Source: Malacoraja senta
Taxonomy: Eukaryota
Assembly: GCA_038087875.1 (NCBI GenBank)
Contig: CM075991.1
Coordinates: 682,001 to 746,000 of the forward strand
Direction of reading: 5' to 3'
DNA: 64,000 nucleotides
Shown here piece after piece: positions 2,046 to 39,300 of this stretch. The position numbers were made by a program, and so were the translations under genes. Position 1 is the first letter of the stretch. Each line of letters begins with the position of its first letter. The notes below the pieces were generated by a model, which was not told the DNA's origin, made no database searches, and worked only from the letters and a program-made list of their open reading frames with translations.

Positions 2046-2567
2046 AAGATGGTAGCCCTGCCGGCAGTCTGTTCGTTTTTCTTTTTGTTATTTTTTAGTT
2101 TGTTAAAAGTTGGTTTTAATGTTCTTCGGTTTGTTTTATGTGGTTGGAGGGGACGAAACTTTTTTTCAAGTTCCTACCTTCCCGGAGATGTGATCAATTT
2201 TCGGATCACATTCTCCGGGCTCTGCGGCCTACCATCGCTGGAGCTGGAAGCCTCCTCGGACTGTTGTGAGCCCCACCGGGGGGCGTGGACTTAACATCGG
2301 AGCTGATCCCTTGCCTGGGACCGCGACCACCGTGCACTTACCATCAAGGGCTCGCAGTCTCAGGAGAGGTCAGTCGGGAGCTCCAACGCCGCGGAAGGCT
2401 CGACTGAAGGAAGACTGACCTGGCCAGTGAAATTCCTCGTATGTTGCAAAACATACTTGGCGATTCTGATTCTGATTCTGATTCTGAAATGTTATCTGTA
2501 CCCTTTCCAGCTTGACAAGATCTTTCCTGTAACATGGTGCCCAGAACTGAACACAATACTCCAACTG

Positions 2568-2965: not shown

Positions 2966-4305
2966 CATATAACCATTACAGCACGGAAACAGGCCATCTC
3001 GGCCCTTCAAGTCCGTGCCGAACACTTTTTTTTCTTCTTTTTTTCCCCTCCCTTCTTTCTTCTTACTTCCCCCTAGTCCCATCTACCTGCACTCAGACCA
3101 TAACCCTCCATTCCTTTCCCGTCCATATACCCATCCAATCTATTTTTAAAGGATAAAATCGAACCTGCCTCCACCACTTCCACTGGAAGCTCATTCCACA
3201 CAGCTACCACTCTCTGAGTAAAGAAGTTCCCCCTAATGTTACCCCTAAACTTCTGTCCCTTAATTCTCAAGTCATGTCCCCTTGTTTGAATCTTCCGTAC
3301 TCTCAATGGGAAAAGCTTATCCACCGTCAGCTCATAATTTTAAAGACCTCTATCAAGTCCCCTCTTAACCTTCTGCGCTCCAAAGAATAAAGACCTAACT
3401 TGTTCAACCTTTCTCTGTAACTTAGTTGCTGAAACCCAGGCAACATTCTAGTAAATCTCCTGTGTACTCTCTCTATTTTGTTGACATCCTTCCTATAATT
3501 AGGCGACCAAAATTGTACTCCATACTCCAGAATTGGCCTCACCAATGCCTTGTACAATTTTAACATTACATCCCAACTTCTATATTCAATGCTCTGATTT
3601 ATAAAGGCCAGCACACCAAAAGCTTTCTTTACCACCCTATCTACATGAGATTCCACCTTCAGGGAACTATGCACAGTTATTCCTAGATCCCTCTGTTCAA
3701 CTGCATTCCTCAATTCGCTACCATTTACCATGTACGTCCTATTTTGATTTGTCCTGCCGAGATGTAGCACCTCACATTTATCAGCATTAAACTCCATCTG
3801 CCATCTTTCAGCCCACTCTTCCAAATGGACTAAATCTCTCTGTAGACTTTGAAAATCTACTTCATTATCCACAACACCACCTATCTTAGTATCATCTGCA
3901 TACTTACTAATCCAATTTTCCACACCATCATCCAGATCATTGATGTACATGACAAACAACAGTGGACCCAACACAGACCCCTGAGGCACCCCACTAGTCA
4001 CCGGCCTCCAACCTGACAAACAGCCATCCACCATTACTCTCTGGCATCTCCCATTCAGCCACTGTTGAATCCATCTTGCTACTCCACCATTAATACCCAA
4101 TAATTGAATCTTCTTAACCAACCTTCCATGAGGAACCTTGTCAAAGGCCTTACTGAAGTCCATATAGACAACATCCACTGCTTTACCCTCATCAATTTCC
4201 CTAGTAACCTCTTCGAAAAATTCAAGAAGATTAGTCAAACATGACCTTCCAGGCACAAATCCATGTTGACTGTTCCTAATCAGACCCTGCTTATCCAGAT
4301 GCTTT
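2966..4305 (-). mobile_element. Young 5'-truncated CR1 LINE (RT and C-terminus)
   Basis: Uninterrupted 309-aa RT ORF 3327-4256 (DFSKAFD, GVPQGSVLGP, YADD) plus C-terminal ORF 3073-3324. The 3'UTR is near-identical to 47742-48080 and 63630-63690. Confidence 0.95.
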
Positions 4306-6237
4306 GAATTCCCTTGAATGAGTTAACTGAGTTTGAATTCCTCTAGTCGTAGTGGGATTTCAGGACGTTGCTGCTGGTGCAGGCACCCCATAGTCACACT
4401 ATCCTGCCAGCACCAACTGCTGGCATCATGTCAAGTTCCTTCCCTTCAGCCCTCTTTAACATGCCCTCTCCCGTTACCAAGGCTCACCAATATCCCCGAG
4501 TGTTGCTGGGGCAAGACCAACTGTCTGGTGTGTATGATACACATTACCATTGCACTTAAACCTCTTCTAGGCTCTCCTGGGTTTCCTTCCTATCCCTGCC
4601 GTTTGACGTTTGATGGCGTGGCAGGTGTTGAGTTACACATTCACGCTGTCTCCTCTCCAGTTGCAGCCACATCAGAATCACACTCTCTCTCAGATGTCTG
4701 CAATCTATTTGCAGCTGGAAACCAAGGGCAATGATCACAATTTATCATGTTCACTTTGTTTGTATTTTCCAGTTGCCGATGTGATTGTAATGTAACAAAT
4801 CTCTTTTCAGAAGATGTTTGTTTTGACTTCTCTGTGTGTCGACACTACATCTGTAGAAGACGTATATGCTTGGTATAAATGTAAATTGTCCCTTGTGTGT
4901 GTAGGATAGCGTTAATGTGTAGGGATGGCTGGTCGGTGCGGACTCGGTGGGCTGAAGGGCCTGTGTCTGTGCTTTTTGTAAATTAAACTAAATTATAAGA
5001 TGGCTGCATCATTTAAAATGCCATTTCTTAACAGTGTTAATCTTGTTTCCTGTTCAAGGCCTCCCTCCGCAGTGCCCTCTGTCCATGGCCGTGTGGAGCA
5101 GCTGTCCTCACTCAAGGTCAGAGGGACGTGTGGTGGTTCAGATACTCATCTCACGTTACAGTACCACAATCTCCACCAGCGGACGGAGCAGCAAGGCGTC
5201 TGTGTTCTGGGAACCGAGTCAGTGCACAACTGGAAACTCCAGTCACTTCCCCAGCACTTGGCCGGCTGGTGAAATCACCTCAAAGAAGGTCGCAACCCCA
5301 ACCTTCCTCTGTCCATCCCCTCCACAGATGCTGCCTGAGTTACTCCACCATGAGTTACTCCACCATGTGCAAGAAGAATCTGCAGATGCTGCTTTACACC
5401 AAAGATAGACACAACATGCTGATCAGGCAGCATCTCTGGAGAAAAGAAATAGGTGACGTTTCAGGTTGAGACCCTTCTTCAGGGGAACCCGAAACGTCAC
5501 CTATTCCTTTTCTCCAGAGACAGTGCCTGACCCGCTGAGTTACTCCAGCATTTTGTGTCTACGAGTTACTCCAGGAATTTGTGTGTTGCTCCTAATTTTT
5601 ATAAACTTATTTCTATTAAATATTTAAAATTTTCATTGCAAAATATGTAAATAAATGGTTCACAAAGACAATAGTAGTTCTTTACTTATTTACCATCAAT
5701 ATATTTCCATGTTAGAGTTGTCCAGCACGAATACGGGCCCTTCGGCCCTACCTTCCCACACCAACCAATGTGCCCCTTCTGCAGTCCCACCTGCCTGCAT
5801 TTGGCCCATATCCCTCTAAACCTGTCCTATCCATGTTATGATTCTACTGTTTTAGTTTTCACAAGTTCTAAGAGGAAGATGTAGGCCATTTGGCTTATGG
5901 CTACTCTGCCATTCAATCATAGCTGGTCTATCTTTCCCTCTCAACCCCATTCTTCTGCCTTCTCCGCATAGCCCCTGACACCTTAACTAATCAAGCATCT
6001 GTCAATCTCTGCCTTAAAATCATCCACTGATGGCCTCCACAGCCATCTGTGGCAATGAATTCCACAGATTCATCACCCTCTGACTAAAGAAATTCTTTCT
6101 CATCTCTCACTTTAACCTTATTGTCTAAACCAGGGACCTCCAAATGTGTTCTCTAGTTTGTTTTATGTGAGGGGTCGGGGAAAACTTTGTTTCAATCTCT
6201 TATCTTGCCGAAGATGCGATTGTTTTCCGGGTCGTAT

Positions 6238-6792
6238 TGTTGATTCACGTTTTTCTCTCACATCGGTTGTTTCGACAATAATCGACCGGACACCGGGGTT
6301 GCTTTAAACGTACGTTTATTCAACACTGAGTCTTCACACAGGTTAACAACCTAGCAAAGAGTCAAGCTCAATGCCTTAATTTGTAATGCCTTATATACTT
6401 AAAGGCTACAGGTTATGCCTCCCATATTACTGATACAAAGCAACAGACACGAACGCCATGGTCAGGATCACAGGCAAGTACATATTGGGAGGTGTTATTT
6501 AGTGGAACAATACTAGAGATAAGACAGGTACATTCCTCAGACTTCTGAGAGCCACGGTTTGTATATTCCTTAGACTTCTGAGCCAGCTATCTCAGTCAGA
6601 CGGGTACAGTTAATACCATAGTGGCGAATATGGAGTAACAGCAGGACAATGTGAATTTTTCCTGACCCCTGCAGCTACATATTCAGCAACTTTGGTCAGC
6701 AGACATTTTATGTTTCAATCCAGTCCACCTGGCCAAACCATTTTACCTTCACAGAACAATCTTACAGCGTTTATTCAACATTTACATTCACA
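6238..6792 (-). repeat. ERV 3' LTR (555 bp)
   Basis: Direct repeat of 12365-12933. Minus-strand AATAAA at 6315-6320 and TATATAA at 6391-6397. Confidence 0.97.
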
Positions 6793-6804
6793 TTCCCCCC
6801 TTTT
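6793..6804 (-). other. ERV polypurine tract
   Basis: Minus strand reads AAAAGGGGGGAA immediately before the 3' LTR. Confidence 0.92.
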
Positions 6805-6980
6805 GCCATTCTTATGGCAACACTCATAGTCCATTAAAAAGTCCCATTCGCCGAATCTCGTAACTTTCTAGTTCCCTGGCCACGGCCTCTTGGACCGTCC
6901 GACCCTTGTCCCCCAATTCTCCTTCCTCACTCACTTCATCGTCTTCACTGTCGTTGGGGAACGGTAACAGTCTCTCCTGC

Positions 6981-8494
6981 TCACGCTGTAAGATCATCAT
7001 TCGTACAGACTGTATAGCTTCCTCGGGGGTTGGTCCCCAAACATGATAAAGCCGCCATTAATCGGGCTATGATACATTTCACAATGGCGATCCCCACAAA
7101 TAAGCAAGTAACTACTATAGCAGCATAGATGGCCATGCTGATAATCCAGTTGTATAATTCCCCCATCCCTGGTTTTCATTTATTCCATCCAAAAAGGTGG
7201 TAATCTCTTTCTGGTGTTGGGTGATGTTGCTAGTCCTGTCTTGAACCCCCATCATACATTTCCCTTTTATGACGGTACAGGTCCCCCCGTCTCTAGCCAA
7301 TAAGTAATCGAGCGCATATCTATTTTGTAGGGAAAACATCCTCATTTCGGCCATCTGGGTTTTTACTGCCTCCAAGGCTCCAGTTGTTGCATTGCCCAAA
7401 ATTGTCAGGCCTCAAACAAGGTAATTTCGGTTTTTGGCTGCTTCACCTCCACCCACTCCTCCCATTGTTAGCATGCTTAATAATCCCCATCCGATGGCAT
7501 GTCCGTGGGTAGCTCCCCTGACCCCTGGATGTCTCCATTGTGCGCAAAACTCGGCCGACACCGCCCTTCGATGAACCCGAGCCATGGGTTTAGTCCATCG
7601 CTCGGGACAAGGTACCGTGGTTGGCACCAATGCTCCAACTGCCATGTTCTCGGGGAAAGGGGGTTTTAGGACATTGGTTCCTTTCCCCTTAAAGAAGAAG
7701 TAATATCCTTCCTCCGTATATAATGATCCATTACAGCCCCTTCGGGTATTAATGACTTCTCCCCCTCCAGACCAGTCCCTCCACGCTTCACTGATCCGAT
7801 TGCTATAACTGGGGATTGGCAGGTGATGGGATCCTACCGTCAGATGGGTCCCGTTAGCCCATCCACACAACAGCTGAAATCCAGCATTTACAGGGATACA
7901 TTCCTTGGACACCTTACATTGGACTCCTTTATAGGTAAGGTTACATGCGGAGCCGTGAACGGGCCCTTGCAGAGCGCAAGTGAGGTTATTTTTAACATTT
8001 ATGACTATACACCCGTGTCCTTGGTTACTAAAACAATTTTCATATTGCCTGTTGTCATTATTGGTGGTGAAGTTACATGGCCTAGCCGGTGCTCTTGACG
8101 CTGTCCTAGATCCATTATAGCAAATGTCGTAGGAGTGGTTGTTGTTCTTAGGGAGCGGTAAGCAGTTGGCCGGTGGAGCGAGAAGCCCATCATAGCTGAT
8201 GATAACGGGCTTGACAGGGAACGTTTCTTTGTCCTGGCACTTCACCAGTCGTTCAGTTCTGCCCCATGCAGGGGATGGGGTAAACAGGGAGGTAACTGAT
8301 GTCATTCGTGGATAACAAACCACCTGCCCCTTCCCGAATAGCTCGTTGTGTGCCTGGATGAATAAATTGGAGTTTTCTCGTTCCCCTCTCTTTCCTCGTT
8401 TGTTCCGTCCGTATTCAGGCTTTGTCCATTTCCAACCGAAACTGATTAACCCTGCTGTGGTTGCCACACATATTAATGCCACGGAGACCCTCAT
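6981..8494 (-). pseudogene. env: ERV env (SU ORF 7412-8494 open; premature stop, then TM with frameshift)
   Basis: Signal peptide MRVSVALICVATTAGLISFG, Cys-rich SU, RVHRR cleavage-like site and hydrophobic fusion segment. In the same frame after the TGA: ISD LQNRYALDYLLARDGGTC and CX6C. Membrane anchor in shifted frame 6981-7166. Confidence 0.92.
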
Positions 8495-8567
8495 CTTAGC
8501 GATTTATTTCGTATCTGCGAACACAAGGGGAGGGAAAAAGAAAGGAACGTGCAATTTCAAAGCGAAA

Positions 8568-10972
8568 TTAATTCGTACCCTGCTTTTCGTGGACCGGATC
8601 CCCCTCTCTGACCTCGACCTCCCCCCTTTGCTTGGTGTCACCAAGCACTTTACAATGGTGCAAATGCACCCATGCCGATCGTCCTTCTACCTTTACTGCG
8701 GTGGAGGTGGTGAGGAGAACCTGGAAGGGGCCCAACCATCGAGGAGAAAGGGTGTATATACGAACCCAATTCTTAATCAACACATAAGAACCCGGGGTGA
8801 TCGTCCATCAACGGGAAAATCTATGTCACCCACATAAGCGGCCTTGACCTCCCCATGAATCTCACGCAGGGCCCTTGTAAGGGCAAGGACGTAAGAGACC
8901 ATCTCCTCTGTCATATGATGCAATGTCGCTGTGGCCGGGATAATGTCTGTCCAGGGGGTGCGCAGGGGTCGGCCATAGATGATCTCTGCAGGAGACAACC
9001 TTGTCTTCCCTGCTGGAAGGACTCTGATCTGAAACAAGGCAACAGGTAACATTTTAACCCAGGTGGAGCCCGATTGGTCCACCAGCTTGGCAAGCTTGGT
9101 CTTCAGGGTCAGGTTCAAGCGTTCCACCATTCCTGCAGCCTGTGGGCGATAAGCACAATGTAGCCGCTGGGTTACACCCAGCTGTCGGTACAATTCTTTA
9201 TTGATAGCGGCAATAAAGTGAGGGCCGTTATCCCAACTGATGGTGTTTGGAACCCCAAAGCGAGGAACAAACTGCTGTAATAAAATAGACACCACCGTAG
9301 AAGCAGTGCAATCAGTGGTTGGAAAGGCTTCAATCCACCTAGAAAACACATCAACAATAACAAGCACATGTTTATAACACTGACACTTAGGCAAATCAAT
9401 AAAATCCATCTGTAAGGTTTCAAACGGAGCAGTAGGTAATGGAGTACGACCCGTCTGGCAGACAACTCCTTTACCAGGGTTGTGTGCAGCACAGGTGAGG
9501 CACCGTGCACTAGTTTGGGCTGCCAAAACCTTAAGTCGAGGATGCCACCATGCCTGTAAGAGAGCGTCTACTAGCAAGGTGGCCCCACAGTGAGTGGCTA
9601 GATGTAGGCAATCAACAACCCAGGTCGCTAACTGGTCTGTCATACAGGTCTGTCCGGCCGGCGTGAGCCACAATCCAGAGTCAGCCTTCCGACAGCCCAG
9701 CTGCTCCCATTCCATTATTACATCAACAGAGGCATCCCCCTGTAAGTGCAATACATCATTCATGGTTGGCATAGGTTTCTCAGATTCAGACGAGCCCATA
9801 TAAAGGCTTTTCACCTGCCTCATCATACTACCCACCACTTTAAATCTACCGCGTGAAGCACACTTAGCCGCTTCGTCAGCCAACCTGTTACCGATTTGGA
9901 CCGGGGAATCTCCTGTCGTGTGGGCCACACATTTGATTACGGCTACCGCAGAGGGCAGAAGGATAGCATTCAACAGGTCAGTGACCAGGAACTGATTGGA
10001 AATCTTATGGCCCGTCGAGGTGAGGAATCCCCTATTTTTCCATAACTGTCCGAAATCCTGAACGACTCCGAATGCGTATCGGGAGTCGGTGTAAATATTG
10101 ACGGAGAGCCCCTCGGAGTGGACACAGGCTCGGGTGAGGGCAAACAACTCAGCCTGCTGAGCTGAAATCGGTGGGTCAAAACTGCCACAATCCAGCAAGG
10201 TTCCATCTTGCTTAACTACCGCAAAGCCTGACAGATGGCGTCCCTGCTCGTCGATGGACGAACTTCCATCGGTATAGAGGATCAAATCTGGAGAGGCTAG
10301 AGGTTTATCGCTAAGGTCAGGGCGCGGACTGGTATCCGCGAGAATAGCCTCCAAGCAATTATGGTCGCATGGAGCGAGGGGATCAGGAGGAGAGCAGAGA
10401 AACGCAGCAGGGTTGATAGTGGTGCAGTGCCGGAACTGTAGCTTGGGATTATTCAACAGGTAGATCTCATACCTATTTTGTCTGGCTGAAGTCAAATGCT
10501 GGGTCTGGAGCTGTCCCAGTAGGGCGGTCACGGAGTGGGAGGAATATCCAGTAATGTCCTGCTGGAGAGTCAGGTATCATTCCCAACCACTGTCGCATTC
10601 CCCTGGCTGATGTGGGGGGTATGTCCTGTAAATAGGGTCCGTGCGTCTCTCGTCCAACCGACGGCCATCTGCTGAGATTATGATTCCGAGGAATTTCACC
10701 TCCTTTTGTCCGACATGTACTTTGGAGGGGGACACAACGTACCCCAATGCCTTTACAAAGTTCAACAACAAAATTATAGCTTCCCTATTCTGCTCCTCCG
10801 TTTCACTGGCCACTAAAAGTTCATCGATGTACTGGATCAATGCAGACCACTCAGGTAACTGCAGGTTTTGTAATTGCTGTTGCAGACAATGCGAAAATAG
10901 GGTCGGCGAGTTTACAAAGCCCTGTGGCAATCTGGTCCATGTATACTGTAGGGGAGGGATTGAGTTCACCAC
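8568..10972 (-). pseudogene. pol: ERV pol remnant (partial RT, RNase H, integrase)
   Basis: RT LPQGFVNSP and YIDE. RNase H YTDGSS / SAQQAEL / YTDSRY. Integrase HHCC (HLATH..CLTC), QMDFI, WDNGPHF, GMVERLN. The C-terminal GPF module (PRWLGPFQV) is in a shifted frame. Confidence 0.95.
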
Positions 10973-10974
10973 TG

Positions 10975-11810
10975 TGCCATATTCTTTCTGGTTTTGGTCT
11001 GGGGGTTCAGCTTAGTTCTGCCTCCCACGGAGTCGGTAGATTGTAGGGCAGCAGGAGAATACGGAGGAGGTCGGTCTGCTGGAGGGGCACTAGTGGCAAC
11101 TGTCTTCCCTGTGGTCCCCTACTGAATGGGACCGTCTTCTGGGGTTCAGCGAGGTTACAGGAGATTTGGAAACTGGTATCTGTGAAGGGCGAGTTTTAAT
11201 CTTGGATCGGGTAGCGGGAATTGGAGGAGCGGACACGGGACTGGCAACGGGGGCAGAGGGACTGGCAACGGGGGCAGTGGTTCAGCGGGGGTGCTCCACG
11301 GATTCCCCAATGATAATCCTCTACCTCCTCCTCCTCGTCACCTCCCAAATCTATGCCAGCCACCGACTTACGTAAGTCTTTATCTACCTCGGCCTTATTT
11401 TGTCTCTCTCTCTCCTGACGACCCTTACTTTCCTCAGCATGCCTACAGTCCTGTTTTAATACGGTCACCGACTTCTCCTGATCCCCCTCGGTCAGGGGTA
11501 TTCCTAGTTTCAAGGCATTACTCTGCCAACTGGCCGTTAAAGACCGTGCCTTTTCTCCGTTACAATCATCGATCCACAACTGAATGGCCTTTTTATAATT
11601 TATTTTTTTATCCTTTTTCCATATTACACTCTGGGCACTTGATAACACACCCATATCCTTGGAACCCCCTTCAGGCCATTCATCCTTCCCCAGTTTATGA
11701 ATGAGTCCTCCCGACATACGCCTGAAGGTCTCCTCCATTTCTGGATGCAAGAAACATAGCTGATGTAATGGCTGGTCCGGGTGACAACTGGTGTCCATAC
11801 CATTACACAT
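10975..11810 (-). pseudogene. gag: ERV gag N-terminal remnant (MA / Pro-rich region)
   Basis: Positioned between leader and pol. 204-aa ORF 11196-11810, with PSAP (11249-11260) and PPPY (11059-11070) late-domain-like motifs in shifted frames. No CA/NC/PR seen. Confidence 0.7.
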
Positions 11811-12344
11811 TTTTAATACTTATTTTATTACACACCAATAGTTCAGGGTTAACCGTGAGTCCTTGGTTCAGCCGTATCTCACTCGGTCACTTCAATTCCT
11901 GACCTTCGCGTGGAGGATTTCCTCTCTTAACAACCAGACTTTCTGTGACTTAACAAGCAGACTTTCTGTGAGATACGGGGGTACCTTGGTCTCGGTTAAC
12001 GTCTCAATACTTGTCAAACTGACGATTCAATAACCATTACATTCCCATCCTAACCCCAGTGCACTCCTCTTATATACCGTCTACGGTCCCCCTCTACGGG
12101 GTATTTTATCCGCTCGATCAGACTAGGACAATCCTCGAGACGGCCCCATCCCCGTGCCCACAACCGGAACGTTCGGATGTCGTCCCACGGACTGACGCAA
12201 GCCAGCGAATTACCTTGCTACGCCGGGATACGAGGAAGGACCAAGTGGTGATTTAACTAAATCTACTCACTTGGCTGCGCAACCTTCACATCGATCCCGT
12301 CGCCCAGTGGATTCACTCGCCGGCTCGATCAGTCGCTGGTTGAC

Positions 12345-12362
12345 ATCCCACTTCTGACACCA
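12345..12362 (-). other. ERV primer-binding site, tRNA-Leu
   Basis: Minus strand TGGTGTCAGAAGTGGGAT, 2 nt from the 5' LTR; complementary to the 3' end ATCCCACTTCTGACACCA of vertebrate tRNA-Leu(CAA/CAG). Confidence 0.9.
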
Positions 12363-12364
12363 AA

Positions 12365-12933
12365 TGTTGATTCATGTTTTTCTCTCACATCGGTTGTTTC
12401 GACAATAATCGACCGGACACCGGGGTTGCTTTAAACGTACGTTTATTCAGCACTGAGTCTTCACACAGGTTAACAACCTGGCAAAGAGTCAAGCTCAATG
12501 CCTTAATTTGTAATGCCTTATATACTTAAAGGCTACAGGTTATGCCTCCCATATTACTGATACAAAGCAACAGACACGAACGCCATGGTCAGGATCACAG
12601 GCAAGTACATACTGGGAGGTGTTATTTAGTGGAACAATACTAGAGATAAGACAGGTACATTCCTCAGACTTCTGAGAGCCACGGTTTGTATATTCCTTAG
12701 ACTTCTGAGAGCCAGCTATCTCAGTCAGACGGGTACAGTTAATACCATAGTCGCGAATATGGAGTAACAGCAGGACAATGTGAATTTCTCCTGACCACAA
12801 CTTCCTGACCCCTGCAGCTACATATTCAGCAATTTTGGTCAGCAGACATTATGTTTTAATCCAGTCCACCTGGCCAAACCATTTTACCTTCACAGAACAA
12901 TCTTACAGCGTTTATTCAACATTTACATTCATA
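12365..12933 (-). repeat. ERV 5' LTR (569 bp) with TATA box
   Basis: Direct repeat of 6238-6792; TATATAA on the minus strand at 12518-12524. Confidence 0.97.
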
Positions 12934-14019
12934 GTATCTCCGGTCGCTCTGCGTCCTAACATCGTGGAGCTGGTGGCCTTGCTTGAGACTGACTTTGAAC
13001 GGAGGGGCCATGGACTTACCATCGGAGCCTGCGATCCCTTACCTGGGATCGACGCTCCAACCGTGGCCTGCGGATTTCAACATCGACGAGCTCGCAGTCT
13101 CAGGCAGAGTCTGATGTCGGGAAGCTCTAAGCTGGAGTCGAATCGCCTGGCGCAGGGGGAGCTGAGATCCCCCGATGCGGGAGCTTGATGGCCCTGATGC
13201 GGAGGGCTCGACCCCCGGTTGTGGGAGCCAAGATCGCCCCGACCGCCGTGGGAGAACAAAGAAGGGAAGAGATTGAACTTTTTTTGCCTTCCATCACAGT
13301 GATTCATGTGGTAGTCACTGTGGTGGATGTTCATGTTCAAAGGTATTTGGGTGTCTCGTTGCTCTTTATTGGTACGACTGAATTTCACTGTACCTTAATT
13401 GGTACATGTGACAATAAACAAACCTTGAAGTTTAATAAAAATAATTTGCCTTCTCAGTTCCCATAGCAAATCACATAAGTAGCTTCCCGCCGTGAATGGG
13501 CAGCCTGTGTTTTTAACACAATGGTGTCAGATTACAGTAAACTTTGTTTTGAAGACTTGTCGTATATTGAATTAACTAGCTGCAACCCCAGTTCCCTTTC
13601 TCTGACAAACTTTCCTATCTTGGAAATTCTTTAAAGAATTTGTGGGAGAATTTTCATAGTTAGATTTCCATAAATCAGGTGGTCCGTAACAAGCCCCTGG
13701 TAGGAGCCCCTACATCTCACGCCAGGGACGCTACGGCATTAGAATAGCACAGATGGACAGGGCACCCATGTCACACAACACCTTGTACACTAAACTCTTA
13801 GAAACATAGAAAATAGGTGCAGGAGGAGGCCATTCGGCCCTTCGAGCCAGCACCGCCATTCTGTGATCATGGCTGATCGTCCCCTATCAATAACCCGTGC
13901 CTGCCTTCTCCCCATATCCCTTGACTCCACTAGCCCCTAGAGCTCTATCTAACTATCTTAAATCCATCCAGTGACTTGGCCTCCACTGCCCTCTGTGGCA
14001 GGGAATTCCATAAATTCAC

Positions 14020-15084
14020 TATCTGGACTACAGTTCTTCCCACCCTGCTTCCTGTAAGGACTCCATCCCCCACTCCCAATTCCTCCGTCTATGCCGCATC
14101 TGCTCCCAGGATGAGGCGTTCCACACCAGGGCATCCGAAATGTCCTCATTCTTCAGGGAACGGGGGTTCCCCTCCTCCACCATAGATGAGGCTCGCACCA
14201 GGGTCTCTGCCATACCCCGCAACACTGCTCTCTCTCCCCATCCCCTCACTCACAACAAGGGCAGAGTTCCCCTAGTCCTCACCTTTCACCCCACCAGCCG
14301 TCACATACAACAAGTGATCCTCCGTCAGTTTCGCCACCTCCAACGTGACCCCACCACTCGCCACATCTTCCCATCTCCCCCCATGTCTGCCTTCCGCAAA
14401 GACCGCTCCCTCCGTAACTCCCTTGTCAATTCTTCCCTTCCCTCCCGTACCACCCCCTCCCCTGGTACTTTCCCTTGCAACCGCAAGAGATGCAACACTT
14501 GTCCCTTCACCTCCCCCCTCGACTCTATTCAAGGACCTAAGCAGTCGTTCCAGGTGCGACAAGAGGTTCACCTGCATCTCCTCCAACCTCATCTATTGCA
14601 TCTGCTGCTCTAGATGCCAGCTGATCTACATCGGTGAGACCAAGCGGCGGCTTGGCGATCGTTTCGCCGAACACCTCCGGTCGGTCCGCAATAACCAACC
14701 TGACCTCCCGGTGGCTCAGCACTTCAACTCCCCCTCCCATTCTGTATCTGACCTCTCTGTCCTGGGTCTCCATGGCCACAGCGAGCAACACCGGAAATTG
14801 GAGGAAATGCACCTCATATTCCGCTTGGGCAGTCTACATCATGGTGGCCTGAACATTGAATTCTCCCAATTCTGCTAGCCCTTGCTGTCCCCTCCCCTTC
14901 ATCAGCCATCTGGTTGTCTCCTCCCCTCCCCCAGCCTTCGGGCTCCTCCTCCGCCTTTTTTCCTTTCTTTTTCCCCACCCCCTATCAGTCTGAAGAAGGG
15001 TTTTGGCCCGAAACGTTGCCTATTTCCTTCGCTCCATAGATGCTGCTGCACCCGCTGAGTTTCTCCAGCATTTTATTGTGTGCC
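14020..15084 (+). mobile_element. 5'-truncated Penelope-like retroelement (RT thumb, linker, GIY-YIG endonuclease, 3' terminal region)
   Basis: ORFs 14140-14613 (FRERGFPS..RVPLVLTFHP..CNRKRCNTC) and 14345-14878 (FTCISSNLIYCICC..IYIGETKRRLGDRFAEH..GLN), joined by a frameshift. 14-bp TSD at 14006-14019 and 15085-15098. Confidence 0.92.
14986..15020 (+). ncRNA. Minimal hammerhead-ribozyme-like motif in the PLE 3' region
   Basis: CTGAAGA-A-GGG(ttttgg)CCC-GAAAC-GTT: both conserved HHR boxes, a stem II and an NUH triplet. Stem I is only ~2 bp. Confidence 0.55.
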
Positions 15085-17635: not shown

Positions 17636-17835
17636 NNNNNNNNNNNNNNNNNNNNNNNNNNNNNNNNNNNNNNNNNNNNNNNNNNNNNNNNNNNNNNNNN
17701 NNNNNNNNNNNNNNNNNNNNNNNNNNNNNNNNNNNNNNNNNNNNNNNNNNNNNNNNNNNNNNNNNNNNNNNNNNNNNNNNNNNNNNNNNNNNNNNNNNNN
17801 NNNNNNNNNNNNNNNNNNNNNNNNNNNNNNNNNNN
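17636..17835. other. Assembly gap (200 N)
   Basis: Run of N, followed by a C-rich minisatellite (ccccacacagtggtctcccc-like units) to ~17940. Confidence 1.
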
Positions 17836-19964: not shown

Positions 19965-21610
19965 TATAGACAATAGACTATAGGTGCAGCAGTAGGCCAT
20001 TCAGCCCTTCGAGCTAGCACCACCATTCAATGTGATCTTGGCTGATCATCCCCAATCAGTACCCCATTCCTGCCTTCTCCCCATATCCCCTGACTCCGCT
20101 ATTTTTAAGAGCCCTATCTAGCTCTCTCTTGAAAGCATCCAGAGAACCTGCCTCCACCGCCCTCTGAGGCAGAGAATTCCACAGACTCACCACTCTCTGT
20201 GAGAAAAAGTGTTTTCTCGTCTCCGTTCTAAATGGCTTACTCCTTATTCTTAAACTGTGGCCCCTGGTTCTGGACTCCCCCAACATCAGGAACATGTTTC
20301 CTGCCTCTAGCGTGTCCAAACCCTTAACAATCTTATATGATTCAATGAGATTCCCTCGCATCCTTCTAAACTCCAGAGTGTACAAGCTCAGCTGCTCCAT
20401 TCTCTCAGCATATGACAGTCTCGCCATCCCGGGAATTAACCTTGTAAACCTACGCTGCACTCCTTCAATAGCAAGAATGTCCTTCCTCAAATTAGGGGAC
20501 CATATGCACACAATATTCCAGGTGTGGTCTCACCAGGGCTCTGTACAACTGCAGAAGGACCTCTTTGCTCCTATATTCAATTCCTCTTGTTATAAAGGCC
20601 AACATGCCATTCGCTTTCTTCACTGCCTGCTGTACCTGCATGCTTACTTTCATAGACTGATGAACAAGGACCCCCAGATCCCGTTGTACTTCCCCTTTCC
20701 CCAACTTGACGCCACTTAGATAGTAATCTGCCTTCCTGTTTTTGCTACCATAGTGGATAACCTCACATTTATCTGCATTAAACTTCATCTGCCATGCATC
20801 TGCCCACTCCCCCAACCTGTCCAAGTCACCCTGCATTCTCATAGCATCCTCCTCACAGTTCACACTGCCACCCAGCTTTGTGTCATCTGCAAATTTGCTA
20901 ATGTTACTTTGAATCCCTTCATCCAAATCATTGATGTATATTGTAAATAGCTGCCGTCCCAGCACCGAGCCTTCCGGTACCACACTAGTCACTGCCTGCC
21001 ATTCTGAACGGGACCCTTTAATCCCTACTCCTTGTTTCCTGTCCGCCAACCAATTTTCTATCCATGTCAGCACTCTACCCCCAATACCATGTGCCTTAAT
21101 TTTGCACAATAATCTATGTGGGACCTTATCAAATGCTTTCTGAAAGTCCAGGTACGTTATATCCACTGGCTCTCCCTTGTCCATTTTCCTAGTTACATCC
21201 TCAAAAAATTCCTGAAGATTAGTCAAGCATGATTTCCCCTTCGTAAATCCATGTTGAGACAGACCGATCCTGTTACTGCTGTCCAAATGTGCGGCTATTT
21301 AATCTTTTATAATTGACTCCAGCATCTTCCCCACCGATGTCAGGCTAACTGGTCTATAATTCCCTGTTTTGTCGCTCCCGCCTTTTTTAAAAAGTGGGAT
21401 AACATTAGCTACCCTCCAATCCACAGGAACTGATCCCGAGTCCTGAGAACATTGGAAAATTATCACCAATGCATCCACGATTTCTAGAGCCACTTCCTTA
21501 AGTACCCTGGGATGCAGACCATCAGGCCCTGGGGATTTATCAGCCTTCAGTCCCATCAGTCTATCCAACACCATTTCCTGCCTAATGTGGATTTCCTTCA
21601 GTTCCTCCCT
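19965..21610 (-). mobile_element. 5'-truncated CR1 LINE (~1.6 kb, frameshifted ORF2)
   Basis: ORFs 21299-21574 (KSPGPDG, NYRPVSLTS), 20492-21286 (DFQKAFD, FADD) and 20056-20511, plus 3'UTR with tattgtc-type tail. Confidence 0.95.
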
Positions 21611-21959: not shown

Positions 21960-22260
21960 TGTGTAAGGGCCCCCCCCCCACCCCCACTATTGACTGCCCC
22001 CGAGGAGGGGCGGGATGACCGGTGATGGTCGGGGCGGCGGCGGTCACCATTGGCCCGCTGCCCAGGGGCGGGTCAAGTCGGGTTGAGCCGCCGGACAGGC
22101 CTCGTCCCAGTGGGGCTGCAGTCGCGTCCCCGTCCCCGTCCCCGTCCCCGTCCCCGAGCCAGCGCTGCTTCACCCCAGCCCGCCGGCGGCCGCTGCGTGA
22201 GTAAAGTCACTCGGTCAGTGGCTGGCGGTGTGTGTGTCTGTGTGGGGGGAGGTGGGTTGG
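21960..22260 (+). promoter_or_regulatory. CpG island / promoter and putative non-coding exon 1 of the PPP1R3C-like gene
   Basis: CpG-dense with GC boxes (GGGGCGG at ~22006, ~22031, ~22065), ATTGG at ~22049 and donor ctgc|GTGAGT at 22197; ~1.1 kb upstream of the coding exon. Confidence 0.65.
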
Positions 22261-22379
22261 TTTGTCGGGGCTGTTGGTGAAGTGTGGGGCGGGGGGTGGG
22301 TGTGAGGGGGAACAGGGGAGGTGAAGGGGATACTGGGTGGGGGGTGGTAGTGGGGGTGAGGAGGTGGTTGGGGGGGGGG

Positions 22380-22950
22380 GTTGTGGGGAGGGCGGGGTTG
22401 GTGTGTTGGGGGTATGATTGTATGGGGAGGGCAGGTTGTGGGGGTGAGGATTGTCTGGGGAGGGCAGGTTGTGGGGGTGAGGATTGTCTGGGGAGGGCAG
22501 GTTGTGGGGGTGAGGATTGTCTGGGGAGGGCAGGTTGTGGGGGTGAGGAGGTGGTTGGGGGGAGGATTGTATGGGGAGGGCAGGTTGTGGGGGTATGATT
22601 GTATGGGGAGGGCAGGTTGTGGGGGTGAGGTGGTTGGGGGTATGATTATATGGGGAGGGCAGGTTGTGGGGGTGAGGATTGTCTGGGGGGGGCAGGTTGT
22701 GGGGGTGAGGATTGTCTGGGGAGGGCAGGTTGTGGGGGTGAGGATTGTCTGGGGAGGGCAGGTTGTGGGGGTGAGGAGGTGGTTGGGGGGAGGATTGTCT
22801 GGGGAGGGCAGGTTGTGGGGTGAGGATTGTCTGGGGAGGGCAGGTTGTGGGGGGAGGATTGTCTGGGGAGGGCAGGTTGTGGGGTGAGGATTGTCTGGGG
22901 AGGGCAGGTTGTGGGGGTATGATTGTATGGGGAGGGCAGGTTGTGGGGGG
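22380..22950 (+). repeat. G-rich 33-bp minisatellite in intron 1
   Basis: About 15 variant copies of ggggagggcaggttgtgggggtgaggattgtct. Confidence 0.95.
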
Positions 22951-23357
22951 TGAGGAGGGAGCGTTGGTGGATGAGGGTGGGGTGAACAGGTCCAGCTCTG
23001 ACTGCCTGCTCTGGTCAGTGCTGGCCACTATGAGGGAGGGGCAGGGGTATGCTGCACACCCATGAAGTTCTCTCCAATGACAATTTTATTCATTGCATTT
23101 GTCCCCCACCCCTTTGGCTTTCTACAGCCAGTCGCATCCCAGGTTTGCAGGGAGGTTGCATTTGTTTTCCGTGCTATATTGTGGGTAGGAAGCAATCCTT
23201 GCTCATTCACTTCCTCGCTCGCCCCCCCCTCCTTGCCCCAATAACCCTGTTGCTGTTTCTGCACTATAACATGACTGTCTACTCTTCTCTCCCACCCCCA
23301 GCTGCCCTTGCCCCTCTCCAGGGATTTGCCTGCCTGCTGCTTCCACCAAGTGCAGCC

Positions 23358-28340: not shown

Positions 28341-30579
28341 GTCCCAAAACATAGTGGTCTTGGCCAGTAGAGTGAAGACGAGCTGAGACCCTGCCATTGC
28401 CCAATATTCGCATTAACTCCTGACAATGGCAATGAGCAGTATCTGCTGAAGCTAGCATGTCACTGAGACGTTGCCTGTTACTAGTGACAAGGTAAGACAC
28501 AAAGTGCTGGTGTAACTCAGCATCTCTGGAGAGAAGGAATAGTGGCATTTTGTGCCGAGACCCTTCTTCAGACTAGTCAGAGAAATGGAAACGAGAGGCA
28601 TCGGCCATGATGTAGAAAGACATAGAACAAATGAATGAAAGATATGCAAAAAAGTAACAACGATAAAGGAAGGGTCTTGACCTGAAACGTCACCCATTCC
28701 TTCTCTCCAGAGATGCTGAGTTACGCCAGCTTTTTGTGTCTTTCTAAGGAAACAGTTGTTGCCTTCCACTTTTGGGTGGTATTTGAGCAGCAGTCTTTCA
28801 CTGGTTCCCTTTGGAACTCAGCGGTGAATCCCAGCACTCCCTGCTGTGCCACCTCAGCACATGCTCCGTGATCCAAGCACTGCAATAAATTCCGACCTGG
28901 ACCATCCTTTTCCCACTGAGTTACTCCAGCATTTTGCGTCTATCCTTCACCTGGTGCCGTGCTGCAACGGTGATTGGCAGAAGAGACATTCCTTGGATAA
29001 TTGCATGTTGCTTTTGTTTGCTGCAAGTGGCTCTGTCGCTAATAATTAGGCCTACAGTGGAATATGCAATGAATGGATCACATGCAGGCAGAGGAGTTGG
29101 TTTAACTTGGCATCATGTTCAGCATGGATTTTGAGGGCCAAAAGGCCTGTTCCTGTGCTGTACTGTTCTATACAAAGTACTGGAGTAATTCTGGGTCAGG
29201 CAGCATCACTGGAGGACAAAGGTCGATGATGTTTCATGTCATGCCCTTCCTCAGGTTGTCTGAATCGGGGTCCTGAGCTGAAACCTTATCTATCTATTCC
29301 CTCCACAGATGCTGCCTGACTGCTGAGCTACTCCAGTCCTTTGTTTTACCCTAAATTCCAGCAGCTACAGATCCTTGTGTCTATGTAATAATGCAAACTG
29401 AGGGGGAACCTCATTGACACTCGCTGAATAGTGAAAGGCCTGGATAATGTGGAGAGGATGATTCCATTAGTGGGAGAGTCTAGGACCAGAGGCTATAGCC
29501 TCAGAATTTGTGGAATTCCCTGCCACAGAGGGCAGTGGAGGCCAAATCACTGGATGGATTTAGGAGAGAGTTAGATAGAGCTCTAGGGGCGAGTGGAATC
29601 AAGGGATATGGGGAGAAGGCAGGCATGGGTTATTGATTGGGGACGATCAGCCATGATCACAATGAATGGTGGCTCAAAGGGCCGAATGGCCTCCTCCTGC
29701 ACCTATTTTCTATGTTTCTAATAAACAGATGTACCTTTTTAGAAAGAAGAGAAGGAATTTCTTTAGTCAGAGGGATAGGAATAGGAATATTTTATTGTCA
29801 CATGTGGTTAGGCACAGTGAAATTCTTTGCTTGCGTACCCAATGTATACAAATAGCCGGCTACCCCTTTTGTTCCCCCACGCCAGGTCCCCATTTTCCTT
29901 TTTTCTCACCTCCCTCAGGGCAGTCCCCCCACAGGCTGGGTCCTCCATTGTTCTTCCTTCCCCCACACGGTGGTTCCCCCACGCTGTCGTTGACTGCGGG
30001 TAGACCCGCGAGGCTTCACCGCTGCCGCTGCCCAACTTGACGCCTCCATGGTGTCGACCCGGGCCCCAGCCACAGCTCTGTCGGCCGCTCCGCTGACCCA
30101 GGCTTCTATGCAGCAATCTGGGAGGCATGGATGATGGAGGCCACGTTCCCAGTTCACAGCCTTGGCCCGATGGGAGGGTGGTGAATTTGTGGAATTCATT
30201 GCATCAGACAGTGAAGGAGGCCAAAGCAATGCATATTTATAAGGTGTAGATTGACAGGTTCTTGATTTGTACAGAGGTTATGGGAGCAGGGCAGGAGAAT
30301 GGGGTTAGGAGGGAGAGATAGATCAGCCATGATTGAATGGCGGAGTAGACTTGATGAGCCAAATGGACTAATTCTGCTCCTAGAGCTTATGAAAATGCTG
30401 CCAATCGCTCACCACAGATGCTGGTTTACACCAAAGATAGACATAAAAAGCTGGAGTAACTCAGCGGGACAGAGAGAAGGAATGGGTGACGTTTGTCCCA
30501 GTTTGTCTTGTATTTTAACTCGGGTTTGCAGCATCTGCGTGTCTTGCTGATTTTCTTCTCTCTCTCTCGCTTCTCGGTG

Positions 30580-31140
30580 CTGCGAGTGCGCGGCCAGACC
30601 GCAGGGGGGCGCCCGCTTGGGCATGCGCATTTCCCCGCGCCGGGAGCGCGCCTGGCCACCCGCACGTGCGCGCGCCGCCGGGTGACCGGTGGGTCTGTGA
30701 CGCGCGCGCGCGCTCGCGCTCTCTCGCTCGCTGGCTGGCGGTGGCGCGCAGGCGGGGACGCGGGCCGGGCCGGGCCGCGCCGGGGGGAGGGAGGGAGGGA
30801 GACACCGCGGGCCGGGCCGGACTGGACTGGACTGGGGGACGGGGCAGTGAGAGGAGGAGGAGGAGGAGGAGGAGGAGGAGGCCGCGGTAGCCGGGCCAGA
30901 GCGGGAGGCCAGGCCAGGCCAGGCCAGGCCAGGCCAGGCCGGACACCAGGGCCCGGGTGAGGGGCCCGCAAGCATGGGCTTCCTGCTGCCCTTCGACAAC
31001 CTGGTGTGCATCCTGCTGGGCATCTCGCTGACCGTCTGGATCACGCTGCTGCTCGTCTTCATCATCGTGCCTGCCATCTTCGGCGTGTCCTTCGGCATCC
31101 GCAAGCTCTACATGAAAACCCTGCTCAAAGTGTTTGAGGT
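30580..31140 (+). promoter_or_regulatory. CpG island promoter / 5'UTR of GPAT4
   Basis: Very GC/CpG-rich; NRF1-like GCATGCGCA (~30622), E-box CACGTG (~30663), and (GGA)n and (GGCCA)n repeats upstream of the ATG. Confidence 0.8.
30974..31138 (+). CDS. GPAT4: Glycerol-3-phosphate acyltransferase 4 (AGPAT6), first coding exon (55 codons)
   Basis: MGFLLPFDNLVCILLGISLTVWITLLLVFIIVPAIFGVSFGIRKLYMKTLLKVFE closely matches the recalled GPAT4 N-terminus (LLPFD..LLGISLTV..LLLVFIIVPAIFGVSFGIRKLYMK). Phase-0 donor GAG|GTAGGC at 31139. Confidence 0.92.
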
Positions 31141-32104
31141 AGGCCGGGCAGCCTTCATACCTTCATAAGTTCTAGGAGCAGAATTAGGCCATTCGGCCCT
31201 TTAAGTTTACTCCGCTATTGACGTATCTATCTCTCCCTCCTAACCCCCTTCTCCCCATAACCCCCTACACACGTACTAATCAAGCATCTGGCTATCTCTG
31301 CCTTAAAAATATCCACTGACGGCGTCCACAGCCAAATAATTCCCCAGATTCACTACCATCTGACTAAATAAATTCCTCCTCATCTTCCTAAAGGAACGTT
31401 CTTTAATTCGGAGGCTACCTCTGGTCCTGGACTCTCCCACTAGCGGAAACATCCTCTCCACACACACTCTATCCAAGACTTTCCAAGTGTGTGTATGAGG
31501 GACAGTCCCTCCGTGCGGCTCCCCCATCGTTACCCCACTATACTGGCCTATAATGGATGTCTTCACTTGGTTCAAGGGCTATCATAACCAAGTACTCCCA
31601 CATCTGCTGATGGAGATGGTGTGTAACTTCAAGGGACAAGGGATTCTTCTCCAGTGTGTCAGGATGTCAGATCCTAGATTACATAAACTGAGACTTTCGA
31701 GTACAGACACAAGGAAGTTATGTCCTGATTTAATAAGAATGGATAGGACCTGAAGGCGTATTTTGTTAGTCTATAGGAACCTAAAGGGCAATCCTTGTGG
31801 AACCAGGGATGAAGATGAGGTCTTTAGTAGATGTAGTTGACAAGTATTCATACAAGAGAAGGGCATTATAGTTTGAGAATTCCAGGAAGGGGCTGTGAAA
31901 TTGTAGAACATGTTATTGTTAAAAGGGGGGAGTTATTAGATGCCTCAGTTGACTCGAATATGGATGCCAGACAACGACAAGGGATGAGATTGCTCGGGCT
32001 ATGACAGATTTTTAAGCGGGTGACTGGAGGATGCCAGATGATTGAAGCTCAGCAAATGTGGGAGCTTTATTCAGAAAGGGCAGCAGGATGAGTGCAGAGC
32101 ACAG

Positions 32105-36351: not shown

Positions 36352-39300
36352 TCATAGTCATAGAATGATACAGTGTGGAAACAGGCCCTTTGGCCCAACT
36401 CGCCCACACCGGCCAACAATGTCCCAGCTACCCTAGTCCCACTTGCCTGCGCTTGGTCCATATCCCTCCAAACTTTCTCCTATCCATGTACCTGTCTAAC
36501 TGTTTCTTAAACGATGGGATAGTCCCAGTCTCAAATATCTCCTCTGGCAGCTCGTTCCATACACCCACCACCCTTTGTGTGAAAATGTCACCCATTGGAT
36601 TCCTATTAAATCTTTTCTACTTCACCTTGAACCTATGTCCTCTGGTCCTTGATCCCCCTACTCTGGGAAAAAGACACTGCATCGACCCGATCTATTCGTC
36701 TCATGATTTTGTGTACCTCGAAAGATCTCTTCTAATCCTCCTACGCTCATGGAATAGAGTCCCAGCCTACTCAACCTCCCCCTGTAGCTCACACCCTCTA
36801 GTCCTGGAAACATCCTTGTAAATATTTTCTGAACCCTTTCAAGCTTGACAATATCTTTCCTATAACAGACCTGAACACAATATTCTAAATGCGATCCACC
36901 AACATCTTATACAACTGCAACATGACCTCCCAACTTCTATACTCAATACTCTGACAGATGAAGGCCAAAGTGCCAAAAACCTTTTTGACCACCTGCGTCT
37001 CCACCGTCAAGAAACTATGCACTTGTACTCCTAGATCCCTCTGCTCTATAACACTTCTCAGAGGCCTACCATTTACTGCGTAGGTCCTGCGCTTGTTCGA
37101 CGTCTCAAAATGCAACACTTCACATTTCTCTGTATTCAATTCCATCAACCATTTCTCTGCCCACCTGGCCAATCGATCAAAATCCTGCTGCAATCTTTCA
37201 CAACCATCTTCACTATCTGCAAAACCACTAACTTTTGTATCATCAGCAAACTTGCTAATCCTGCCATGTATGTTCTCATCCAAATCATTGATGTAGATGA
37301 CAAACAGTAACGGGCCCAGTACCAAAGCCTGAGGCACACCACTAGTCACAGGCCTCCAGTCCGGGAAGCAACCTTCCACCATCACCCTCTGCTTCATTCC
37401 ATGGAACCAATTTGCTTTCCATTCAGCTATCTCTCCTTGGATCCCATGCTATCCAACCGTCCAGAACAGCCCACCCTTGTCGAATGCCTTACTGAAGTCT
37501 ATTTACACAACATCTACAGCTCTGCCCTCATCAACCTTTTTGGTCAAGTCTTCAAAAAAATCAATCAGATTTGAGAGACACATACAAAACCTGTATAACC
37601 TATCCCTCAGAATACTCTCCAGTAACCTACCAACTACAGATGTTAAGCACACCAGCCTATAGTTCCCAGCATTTTCCCTGCAGCCCTTCTTGAATAGAGG
37701 CATATTTGCCACCCTCCAGTTTTCCGGCACCTCTCCTGTATTTAAGGACGACTCGTAATTTTCAACCAAGGCTCCCGCAATTTCCTCTCTAGTTTCCTGC
37801 CATGTCCTCGGATATATCTGATCAGGCCCTGGAGATGTATCTACCTTCAAACACGACAGTACCTTCAGTACTTCTTCGACAGTAACCCTGACTGCTCTCA
37901 AGACACTTCCAGTGACTGCTCCAATTTCCTCCGCCCTACTGTCTTTCTCCTCGGTAAATACAGAGGAGAAATACTCATTTAGTACCTTGCCCATCTCCTG
38001 TGGTTCCACACAGAGGTGACCGCTTTGACTCCTGAGAGGTCTCACTCTCTCTCTAGTTACCCTTTCCCCCCTAATGTATTTATAAAATCTTTTGGGATTG
38101 TCCTTAATGCTACCCGCCAGAGCTATCTCCTGGCCCCTTTTTGCCCTTCTGATTTCCTTTTTTAGTTTGCTCCTTAGTTCCCAAAACTCCTCCATGGATG
38201 CACTTGATCCCAGCTGTTATACCTGTCCCATGCATCCTTCTTGTCTTTGACGAATGTCTCAATTTCCCTCGTCAGCCAAACTTCCTTACATTTGCCTGCT
38301 TTGCCCTTCACTCTAACGGCATCCTGAGATTGCTTCAGTACACTTTTAAAAACATCCCACTTGGTCGATGTTCCTTTCACCTCAAATAACCTGCTCCAGT
38401 CAACTTGAGCGAGACCTTCTCTCATAGCTGCCAAGTAGTACAGATTTTCCATATTTCGTACGGAAATGCGATACGAATACGGAAATACTAATTTGCGTTG
38501 TTAAATATGGATTAAAAAAAAAAATGACCATGGATAATCGTTACAACGAGTCACCGCTGCACCGGCCATGAGACAAAAACGATTTGTTAACTACCACTGT
38601 TAGCACTTGCTAACAGCCAGTAGTTAACACGTAGTTATACAATGTGTCACCAATACATCGATCTACCTTCCTCAGTAAATATAATTGTGTTTTGACCAAG
38701 TATTAATGACGTCGCGTTCCTTTAAATAAAATGAATGGGAGAATTTCTTAAAACTCACTGTCATTAAGGACTCCGGACCGCGAGCACGGGCTTCTTCCTG
38801 GTGTGCAGGTACGGTCATTTACCCACGTTATTTTTAAGAAGGAACTGCAGTTGCTGGAACAATCGAAGATAGACAAAAATACTGGAGAAACTCAGCGGGT
38901 TAGGCAAAAATGCTGGAGAAACTCAGCGGCTGAGACAAAAATGCTGGATGCTGCCTCACCTGCTGCGTTTCTCCAGCATTTTGTCTCACCCGCTGAGTTT
39001 CTCCAACATTTTTGTCTCACTCGCTGAGTTCCTCCAGCATTTTTGTCTCACCCGCTGAGTTTCTCCAGCATTTTTGTCCATCTACGTTATTTAGTAATTT
39101 GTACCCGTCATTTAGGGATGTTATATGAATTTAAAAAAATTAAGTTTATGTGTGTTTTCTGTCTCTCCTTCAACGTTAGTTCTTCTGTTTGCCTTTATTT
39201 GCTTCAGTTTTATTTAGTGTTATCACGTTGTGGTTGCAGCTTTAGAACGATTTAAAACTATCGGATTTTTAAACTTCATATAAGTTCATAGCGTCGCCCG

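Follow-up and report, generated by a model that had tools for sequence, protein, structure and literature searches.

Here we describe an endogenous retrovirus (ERV) on the minus strand of a 64,000-nucleotide stretch of Malacoraja senta DNA (assembly GCA_038087875.1, contig CM075991.1, positions 682,001 to 746,000 of the forward strand), which we call the window and to which all positions refer. We consider it quite likely a germ-line provirus belonging to a family with an epsilon-like character, widespread among skates; it would have been reverse transcribed in trans from an RNA already carrying a large gag-pol deletion and have decayed since, and its envelope (Env) would be an alpha-like variant of the gamma type.

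The provirus spans 6238–12933, and its gag-pol-env order, paired long terminal repeats (LTRs), target-site duplication (TSD), primer-binding site (PBS) and polypurine tract (PPT) are those of an integrated orthoretroviral provirus. Its non-coding features and the host sequence on either side are as follows.

6147..6233, plus strand: dispersed host repeat left of the insertion, collinear with window 2120–2207
6234..6237, unstranded: TSD, left copy, GTAT, with no longer match
6238..6792, minus strand: 3' LTR, 555 bp, TG...CA ends, poly(A) signal 6315–6320, TATA 6390–6397
6793..6804, minus strand: PPT
8515..8547, minus strand: pyrimidine tract with AG, upstream of env, resembling a splice acceptor at the level of consensus only
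12265..12273, minus strand: splice-donor-like site in the leader (consensus match only)
12345..12362, minus strand: PBS for tRNA-Leu(CAA), 18/18, separated from the 5' LTR by a 2-nt spacer
12365..12933, minus strand: 5' LTR, 569 bp, TATA 12517–12524, AATAAA 12442–12447, outer terminal dinucleotide substituted at 12932
12934..12937, unstranded: TSD, right copy, GTAT
12938..13051, plus strand: the host repeat again, on the right-hand side of the provirus and collinear with window 2212–2323

An uninterrupted copy of the target repeat lies at 2120–2323, and both flanks, searched separately, are collinear with it, as expected of a true integration. A sequence-only reading of this locus had described a recent ERV with all cis-signals intact. 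The GTAT duplication, PPT, TATA and AATAAA that it listed are indeed present, as is the perfect 18-nt tRNA-Leu PBS: the first 18 nt of a published tRNA-Leu(CAA) antisense probe equal the PBS at 18/18 positions (PMC7997516, in the part available), and ARAGORN called 25 of the 32 genes whose ends match the first 15 nt of the PBS (among 123 loci) as tRNA-Leu. The description needs qualifying at the outer dinucleotide of the 5' LTR, and it passed over a coding region that is both deleted and broken. Since the U3 end of progeny derives from the 3' LTR, the terminal mutation at 12932, one of eight substitutions between the LTRs, would be harmless to progeny. Candidate donor and acceptor sites, as consensus matches, are present for a spliced env RNA. 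The 64-kb window contains no tRNA genes, and its three Rfam matches all score under the gathering threshold. A literature search that did not extend to subscription papers or preprint supplements found neither an account of the PBS or deletions of the skate family nor a survey of PBS use in fish ERVs. We also observed a second AATAAA at 12911–12916 (position 18 of U3) and at the matching place in the 3' LTR, a 33-bp direct repeat in U3 (6528–6587 and 12655–12714), and an 18-mer identical to the PBS after a CA-ending boundary in an IMG/VR contig (L001:121-260), probably another tRNA-Leu-primed LTR element.

The coding region, mapped against the Leucoraja erinacea models P0003 and P0001, is interrupted by two deletions.

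6824..8494, minus strand: env, disrupted by a stop at 7412–7414 and two frame breaks (near 7150 and near 7030); identity to the open Env of L. erinacea, 94%
8568..8807, minus strand: integrase (IN) C-terminal domain (GPF), in a frame different from that of the core, break near 8800
8777..10573, minus strand: open stretch with reverse transcriptase (RT) connection, RNase H, and IN zinc finger and core
10574..10576, minus strand: deletion junction 2, where relative to L. erinacea about 118 residues from the RT thumb/connection are gone (P0003 residues 1070–1187)
10575..10949, minus strand: RT fragment (C-half of the palm), altered catalytic motif, frame break near 10620
10949..10957, minus strand: deletion junction 1, about 768 residues gone (P0003 residues 177–944)
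10957..11807, minus strand: gag remnant, comprising the N-terminal part and the Pro-rich region, interrupted by stops and frame breaks

Capsid, the nucleocapsid region, protease (PR), the segment between PR and RT, and the N-half of RT are lost at junction 1. Together the deletions remove about 2.7 kb, and by arithmetic from the gaps a full family element would measure at least 9.3 kb. Stops or frame breaks occur in the gag remnant, RT, IN tail and env, so that only the connection-RNase H-IN core is open and none of gag, pol and env is intact. These lesions leave the copy coding-dead, unable to replicate alone and encoding nothing functional. The gag remnant had no Pfam match and its comparison with a lizard Gag-Pol was not significant; no accessory open reading frame was seen, although internal genes could be hidden by the deletions. 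The full-length relatives P0001 and P0129 carry between PR and RT an insert of about 110 residues, which falls inside deletion 1 of the provirus copy. With two HxT motifs it resembles a 2H phosphoesterase, a weak lead (Pfam LigT_PEase, E 0.074; Atlas tRNA_lig_CPD, 0.81, below 0.9) for which the AlphaFold model was unusable (predicted local distance difference test, pLDDT, 37.6). Fish epsilon-like ERVs carrying a CNPase have been reported (PMC4977317, citing Basta, 2009; available in part).

Judging from its relatives, the provirus is most likely a new copy within a skate ERV family that had been sampled before. In the best 120 of 149 Pol matches, L. erinacea comes first (95%) and Scyliorhinus second (61%), and elements of fish, amphibians and reptiles follow at about 37–41%; all 120 contain retroviral RNase H and/or RT domains, and every named host is a vertebrate or the match itself a vertebrate retrovirus. 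Pol is 94–95% identical to four L. erinacea proteins, and Amblyraja radiata Pol is 96–97% identical to L. erinacea Pol. Within L. erinacea the copies are 98.6–99.8% (Pol) and 98.6–99.5% (Env) identical; the provirus copy, at 94–95%, is more diverged from them than they are among themselves. These identities point to a skate as the probable host. Family members occur in RefSeq at L. erinacea LOC129703191, LOC129694503, LOC129716080 and others and at A. radiata LOC116970007 and LOC116978018 (Pol 91–95%, Env 94–95% identical), where Pol or Env is open whereas the provirus copy is deleted and broken. Sequence clusters add A. radiata Pol and three L. erinacea loci with an open 561-residue Env, and one A. 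radiata gene model fuses this Pol to this Env tail. The suggestion that the lineage might be unnamed is hard to maintain given these models, and the family is very probably among loci already published (PMC11521997, seen in part; see below).

A quick, midpoint-rooted tree of the RNase H-IN region (48 rows: 47 chosen matches or cluster members plus the provirus copy) grouped the provirus with Leucoraja and Scyliorhinus (100), and placed this clade inside a 24-row set with walleye epidermal hyperplasia virus 1 (WEHV1) and teleost and amphibian elements (SH-aLRT 98), apart from murine leukaemia virus (MLV) and mammalian gamma-like rows. The terminal branch of the provirus is 0.047, against 0–0.011 for the L. 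erinacea copies. Because WEHV1 (36% identity over RNase H-IN) sits on a long branch, and walleye dermal sarcoma virus (WDSV), the swim bladder sarcoma virus of salmon (SSSV), zebrafish ERV (ZFERV) and the Callorhinchus milii ERVs (CmiERV) lie outside the tree, we call this Pol class I and epsilon-like on the sequence evidence, without claiming membership of the genus. The class I assignment to a cartilaginous fish in the sequence-only reading agrees with this result, as does its GPF integrase tail, a GPY/F-type C-terminal domain (PF18697, E 1e-13). The Pol clade resembles the epsilonretroviruses (WDSV, WEHV1/2) and CmiERV lineages II/III (Han, 2015; PMC4422223, in part). Exogenous epsilonretroviruses, in the descriptions available in part, differ in having a non-gamma Env and accessory genes, neither of which was seen in the provirus, whose Env has an immunosuppressive domain (ISD) and a gamma-type transmembrane subunit (TM). 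The element is better placed by Env and Pol than by the tRNA-Leu PBS that the sequence-only reading offered as a classifier.

Is deletion 1 peculiar to this copy, or was it present before insertion? Parts of the stretch occur in sequencing runs from seven organisms (20 of 22 rows), and we compared four of the 22 runs, from three organisms, over a region ending short of the right LTR and right flank; these runs cover 30 of 30 bins. There were no RNA runs among those listed, which says nothing on expression. In run X2 of organism A, one contig (record 15) reads from 11252 to 10920, that is, from the gag side to 30 letters beyond junction 1, at depth 98.6. Another (record 14) starts at 10949 with depth 89, and three other pol pieces between 9107 and 10514 have depths of 96–134. 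The overlap of records 14 and 15 is, we infer, the pattern of two 31-mer graph paths merging at junction 1. Record 14 departs from the window at 10576 and continues for 433 letters; organism A therefore has sequence at deletion 2, and junction 2 is not shared. We read deletion 1 as probably a subfamily trait older than the insertion and deletion 2 as private to this copy. The same gag-pol deletion at family-level depth in a closely related organism suggests a deleted subfamily that was copied in trans, and short lengths (5.8, 5.9 and 6.4 kb) are also seen in the three published skate loci that have both this Env type and LTR coordinates (PMC11521997, in part). As a separate observation, LTR and env bins are mostly deeper than pol bins in both organism-A runs, hinting at solo LTRs and pol-less forms, with depth a rough guide.

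Under this scenario, tRNA-Leu(CAA)-primed reverse transcription would have been followed by integration into the dispersed host repeat with a 4-bp duplication. The integrating RNA had probably already lost capsid, protease and half of RT; complete family members would have copied and packaged it in trans by way of its intact cis-signals. After integration the copy would have acquired its private stops and frame breaks and, probably, deletion 2.

The TM of the provirus matches Pfam PF00429 and PF22307 and has the ISD noted in the sequence-only reading. The Env type is not plainly gamma: TM has an internal loop and a CX6C motif, and the surface subunit (SU) has no CXXC. Where named, the Env relatives that match over both SU and TM come from elasmobranchs (Leucoraja, Scyliorhinus, Heterodontus, Pristiophorus, Mobula and Hemiscyllium), and the open ones share a furin site, a cysteine-bounded internal hydrophobic loop, a glycan site in heptad repeat 1 (HR1), the ISD, CX6C followed by a hydrophobic residue, and no CXXC. 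By published Env type definitions (PMC9967133 and bioRxiv 10.1101/2024.03.17.585361, both available in part), the classic gamma-type traits (CXXC in SU, CX6CC in TM, N-terminal fusion peptide) are absent from the provirus and its relatives; the cysteine-bounded internal fusion loop without CXXC is present in the open relatives, the provirus copy having a stop in TM. The loop cysteine occurs with a motif lacking the third cysteine in 21 of 159 rows, including the Tapajos virus glycoprotein (GP) and two Anolis-group rows, with the third cysteine in five filovirus rows of the 159, and ordinary CX6CC without the loop cysteine in 106 of 159. Every clade row shown that covers the motif lacks the third cysteine. 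L. erinacea Env has 14 cysteines in SU and 4 in the TM ectodomain, and these even counts, with no CXXC, fit full pairing within subunits and a non-covalent SU-TM association; SU and TM are thus probably held together non-covalently. Avian sarcoma/leukosis virus (ASLV) Env and filovirus GP2 are similar in their cysteine-bounded internal fusion loop, absence of CXXC, HR1 glycan site and ISD, as far as the partly available sources describe them. Both, however, keep CX6CC and the SU-TM disulfide, whereas the third cysteine is missing from Tapajos GP and from the elasmobranch clade.

A profile search of the PDB (56 solved matches) ranked filovirus GP first (E 5.5e-18), far ahead of syncytin-2 (5e-7), ASLV TM (2e-3) and MLV (0.012). 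The alignment of Tapajos GP extends over the C-terminus of SU and over TM (probability 98.7%), and the Anolis-group rows also match the SU C-terminus. TM trees were built from 34 of 36 chosen rows (the careful tree) and from 99 of 129 rows (the broader one), in a set without Mabuya and Varanus sequences. In the careful tree, classic gamma-type Env separates (93/89) from the elasmobranch clade together with Tapajos, mammalian filoviruses and the Anolis group. Tapajos adjoins the elasmobranch clade (88/79); with this support, and with alternatives not rejected, a special Tapajos-elasmobranch link is not established. Topology tests rejected neither the published elasmobranch-filovirus clade (p-AU 0.255) nor a Tapajos-Anolis group pairing (0.377). 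On these motifs, profiles and trees we regard the Env of the family as probably a gamma-type variant of alpha-like form, with kinship to filovirus GP2. No Env relatives were found in IMG/VR, and the AlphaFold model of Env was unusable (pLDDT 32.8). At the N-terminus, the P0136 cluster, P0125, P0126 (Scyliorhinus torazame) and P0124 have about 150 additional residues, Cys-rich and absent from skate Env, which might form a receptor-binding module of their own. The record P0300, labelled Zaire ebolavirus GP, falls in the Marburg cluster with a Marburg-type TM and is probably a chimera or mislabel.

The hand count of about 8–9 substitutions and three indels in the sequence-only reading was close: 553 aligned columns contain seven transitions and one transversion (p = 1.45%, Kimura two-parameter distance 1.47%), with three indels of 2, 14 and 2 bp. 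The 14-bp indel (near 12789–12802) sits between short direct repeats, suggesting slippage. The conclusion of the sequence-only reading that the element is young is not supported as it stands. At 2.2e-9 per year the LTR age is 3.3 Myr (1.4–6.5), and at the 2.2e-10 assumed for sharks it is 33 Myr (14–65) (rates from Han, 2015; PMC4422223, in part); with 7e-10 per generation, the rate for the epaulette shark (PMC10587355, in part), the distance equals about 10 million generations. Our literature search found no mutation rate for skates. The greater divergence of this copy than of the Leucoraja copies from each other also speaks against youth. 'Recent' is therefore relative here, the age probably lying between 3 and 33 Myr depending on the rate, and in an elasmobranch 1.5% LTR divergence need not mean a recent insertion.

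Several points weigh against the trans-mobilization scenario and its companion claims. The junction-1 contig, with 30 letters on its short side, is one under our bridging rule and comes from one run; its depth is not a copy number, independent flanks were not seen, and none of five candidate proteins spans the junction. Assembly errors could account for some of the 1-bp frame breaks, those within homopolymers; other cysteines might link SU to TM, as far as sequence can tell; and the trees do not settle the branching among elasmobranch, filovirus, Tapajos and lizard groups. The interior differs from the run X2 contigs of organism A at 50 of 2,918 letters (1.7%, all eight listed X2 pieces). This exceeds half the LTR divergence (0.7%, with an upper bound of 1.4%); it may be that the LTR clock gives too low an age, or that organism A belongs to another species. 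It is also conceivable that a complete provirus integrated and lost both segments later at the locus, the organism-A junction being the orthologous locus or a segmental duplication. Full-length Pol models at several L. erinacea loci, the private look of junction 2 and the flank that organism A shares (0 differences in 136 letters, record 1) suit this history. We nevertheless think it unlikely, since the depth of the junction-1 contig is like that of the pol pieces (98.6 vs 89–134) and far over the single-digit depths at some X2 flank places, and since the three short published loci (PMC11521997, in part) fall below the estimated full length of at least 9.3 kb.

The remaining alternatives concern age and identity. 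Conversion between the LTRs may have made an older insertion look younger, as the excess interior divergence from organism A (1.7% vs 0.7% expected) and position 6633, where both LTRs share a letter shown by no covering contig of X1, X2 and X6, might indicate; yet 1.7% barely exceeds the upper bound, a species or sublineage difference explains it equally well, and the LTR differences are scattered along the entire LTR, which leaves gene conversion improbable. We give still less credence to the idea that the insertion is very recent, perhaps polymorphic, and from a lineage without a name. Such an insertion could have the 98.5% LTR identity, clean TSD and exact PBS observed, and a copy absent from the samples would fit the many places where all compared organism-A contigs carry another letter, but eight LTR substitutions, three indels and many coding lesions, the long terminal Pol branch, the slow elasmobranch clocks (3–33 Myr) and the presence of the family in RefSeq, and probably in a published table seen in part, all count against it. 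Priming by tRNA-Leu is known from ERV-L, and the PBS 18-mer occurs in three IMG/VR contigs outside tRNA genes, which might recall a Gypsy-type LTR retrotransposon or a class III ERV. An Env with ISD and TM, an MLV-type IN tail and uniformly retroviral Pol matches (120 of 120 listed, the best of 149, with vertebrate hosts or vertebrate retroviruses where named) make that identity vanishingly improbable, and domain content, Pol matches and the Pol tree together refute it.

The trans-mobilized skate provirus that we favour has published relatives. Nino Barreat and Katzourakis (2024; PMC11521997, available in portions) reported retroelements with a filovirus-like ectodomain in Leucoraja, Amblyraja, Scyliorhinus, Chiloscyllium and Rhincodon, the ectodomains being sister to ebola-, marburg-, cueva- and dianloviruses (posterior 0.83), with Tapajos grouping with lizard elements. 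Those loci share hosts and best viral matches (Marburg, Mengla, Ebola, Tapajos) with the family described here, and the listed skate elements are also short. For the Leucoraja locus NC_073388.1 (a 231-bp match, 937 bp from the element end) the offset falls in frame on the provirus ectodomain at 7175–7405; at a second Leucoraja locus the offset (885 bp) is shifted by 52 bp, so the geometry is exact for one of the two. This geometry makes it very probable that the family is among these loci. The text portions available describe no PBS, missing third cysteine, fusion loop or shared deletions. In a screen of 974 fish genomes, Chen et al. (bioRxiv 10.1101/2021.11.23.469661, in part) found ERVs combining epsilon Pol with a gamma-type Env, a CXnC subtype and novel fusion peptides; their anamniote ERVs resemble the skate family in having epsilon-like Pol, gamma-type Env and no accessory genes. 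The skate family may be their ERV-GA.a-Ara, a candidate by name and description: 'Ara' presumably stands for Amblyraja radiata, and 'GA' may point to a gamma-related Pol, unlike the epsilon-like Pol of the provirus. The available portions of PMC11089739 and PMC8672886 hold nothing on the skate family.

In itself the locus is one more decayed ERV copy, its value lying in the Env type, probably non-covalent, and the possible trans-mobilized subfamily. The pairing of ISD and CX6CC has been called invariant (PMC9967133, a review seen in part), and here an elasmobranch clade of skates, several sharks and a manta ray keeps the ISD without the third cysteine, which bears on the role of the ISD and on the origin of the GP1-GP2 link. 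The CXnC subtype was already known (Chen et al., in part), so this exception is not wholly new. The published filovirus-sister claim, with its moderate support (posterior 0.83), can now be tied to a defined proviral organization: Pol is epsilon-like, priming is by tRNA-Leu(CAA), and the little skate has near-identical open Env frames. We also entertain, tentatively, a larger possibility: that skates harbour a recently active retrovirus family with an Env of an uncharacterized entry-protein type (filovirus/ASLV-like loop, ISD, no SU-TM disulfide) that is a natural exception to the ISD-CX6CC rule, that this clade is the nearest retroviral kin of Tapajos GP, and that the family spread in part as an env-bearing, gag-pol-deleted subfamily in trans.

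Elsewhere in the window, decayed RT fragments like those of long interspersed nuclear elements, which we take to be CR1-like, occur at 1–615, 3330–4322, 20059–21298 and 36888–38216, and a frame at 14014–14610 is presumably Penelope-like. A 200-N assembly gap lies at 17636–17835 and a GC-skewed tandem repeat at 22000–23100, and a GC-rich stretch with long open frames at 30400–31200 is a possible host exon.

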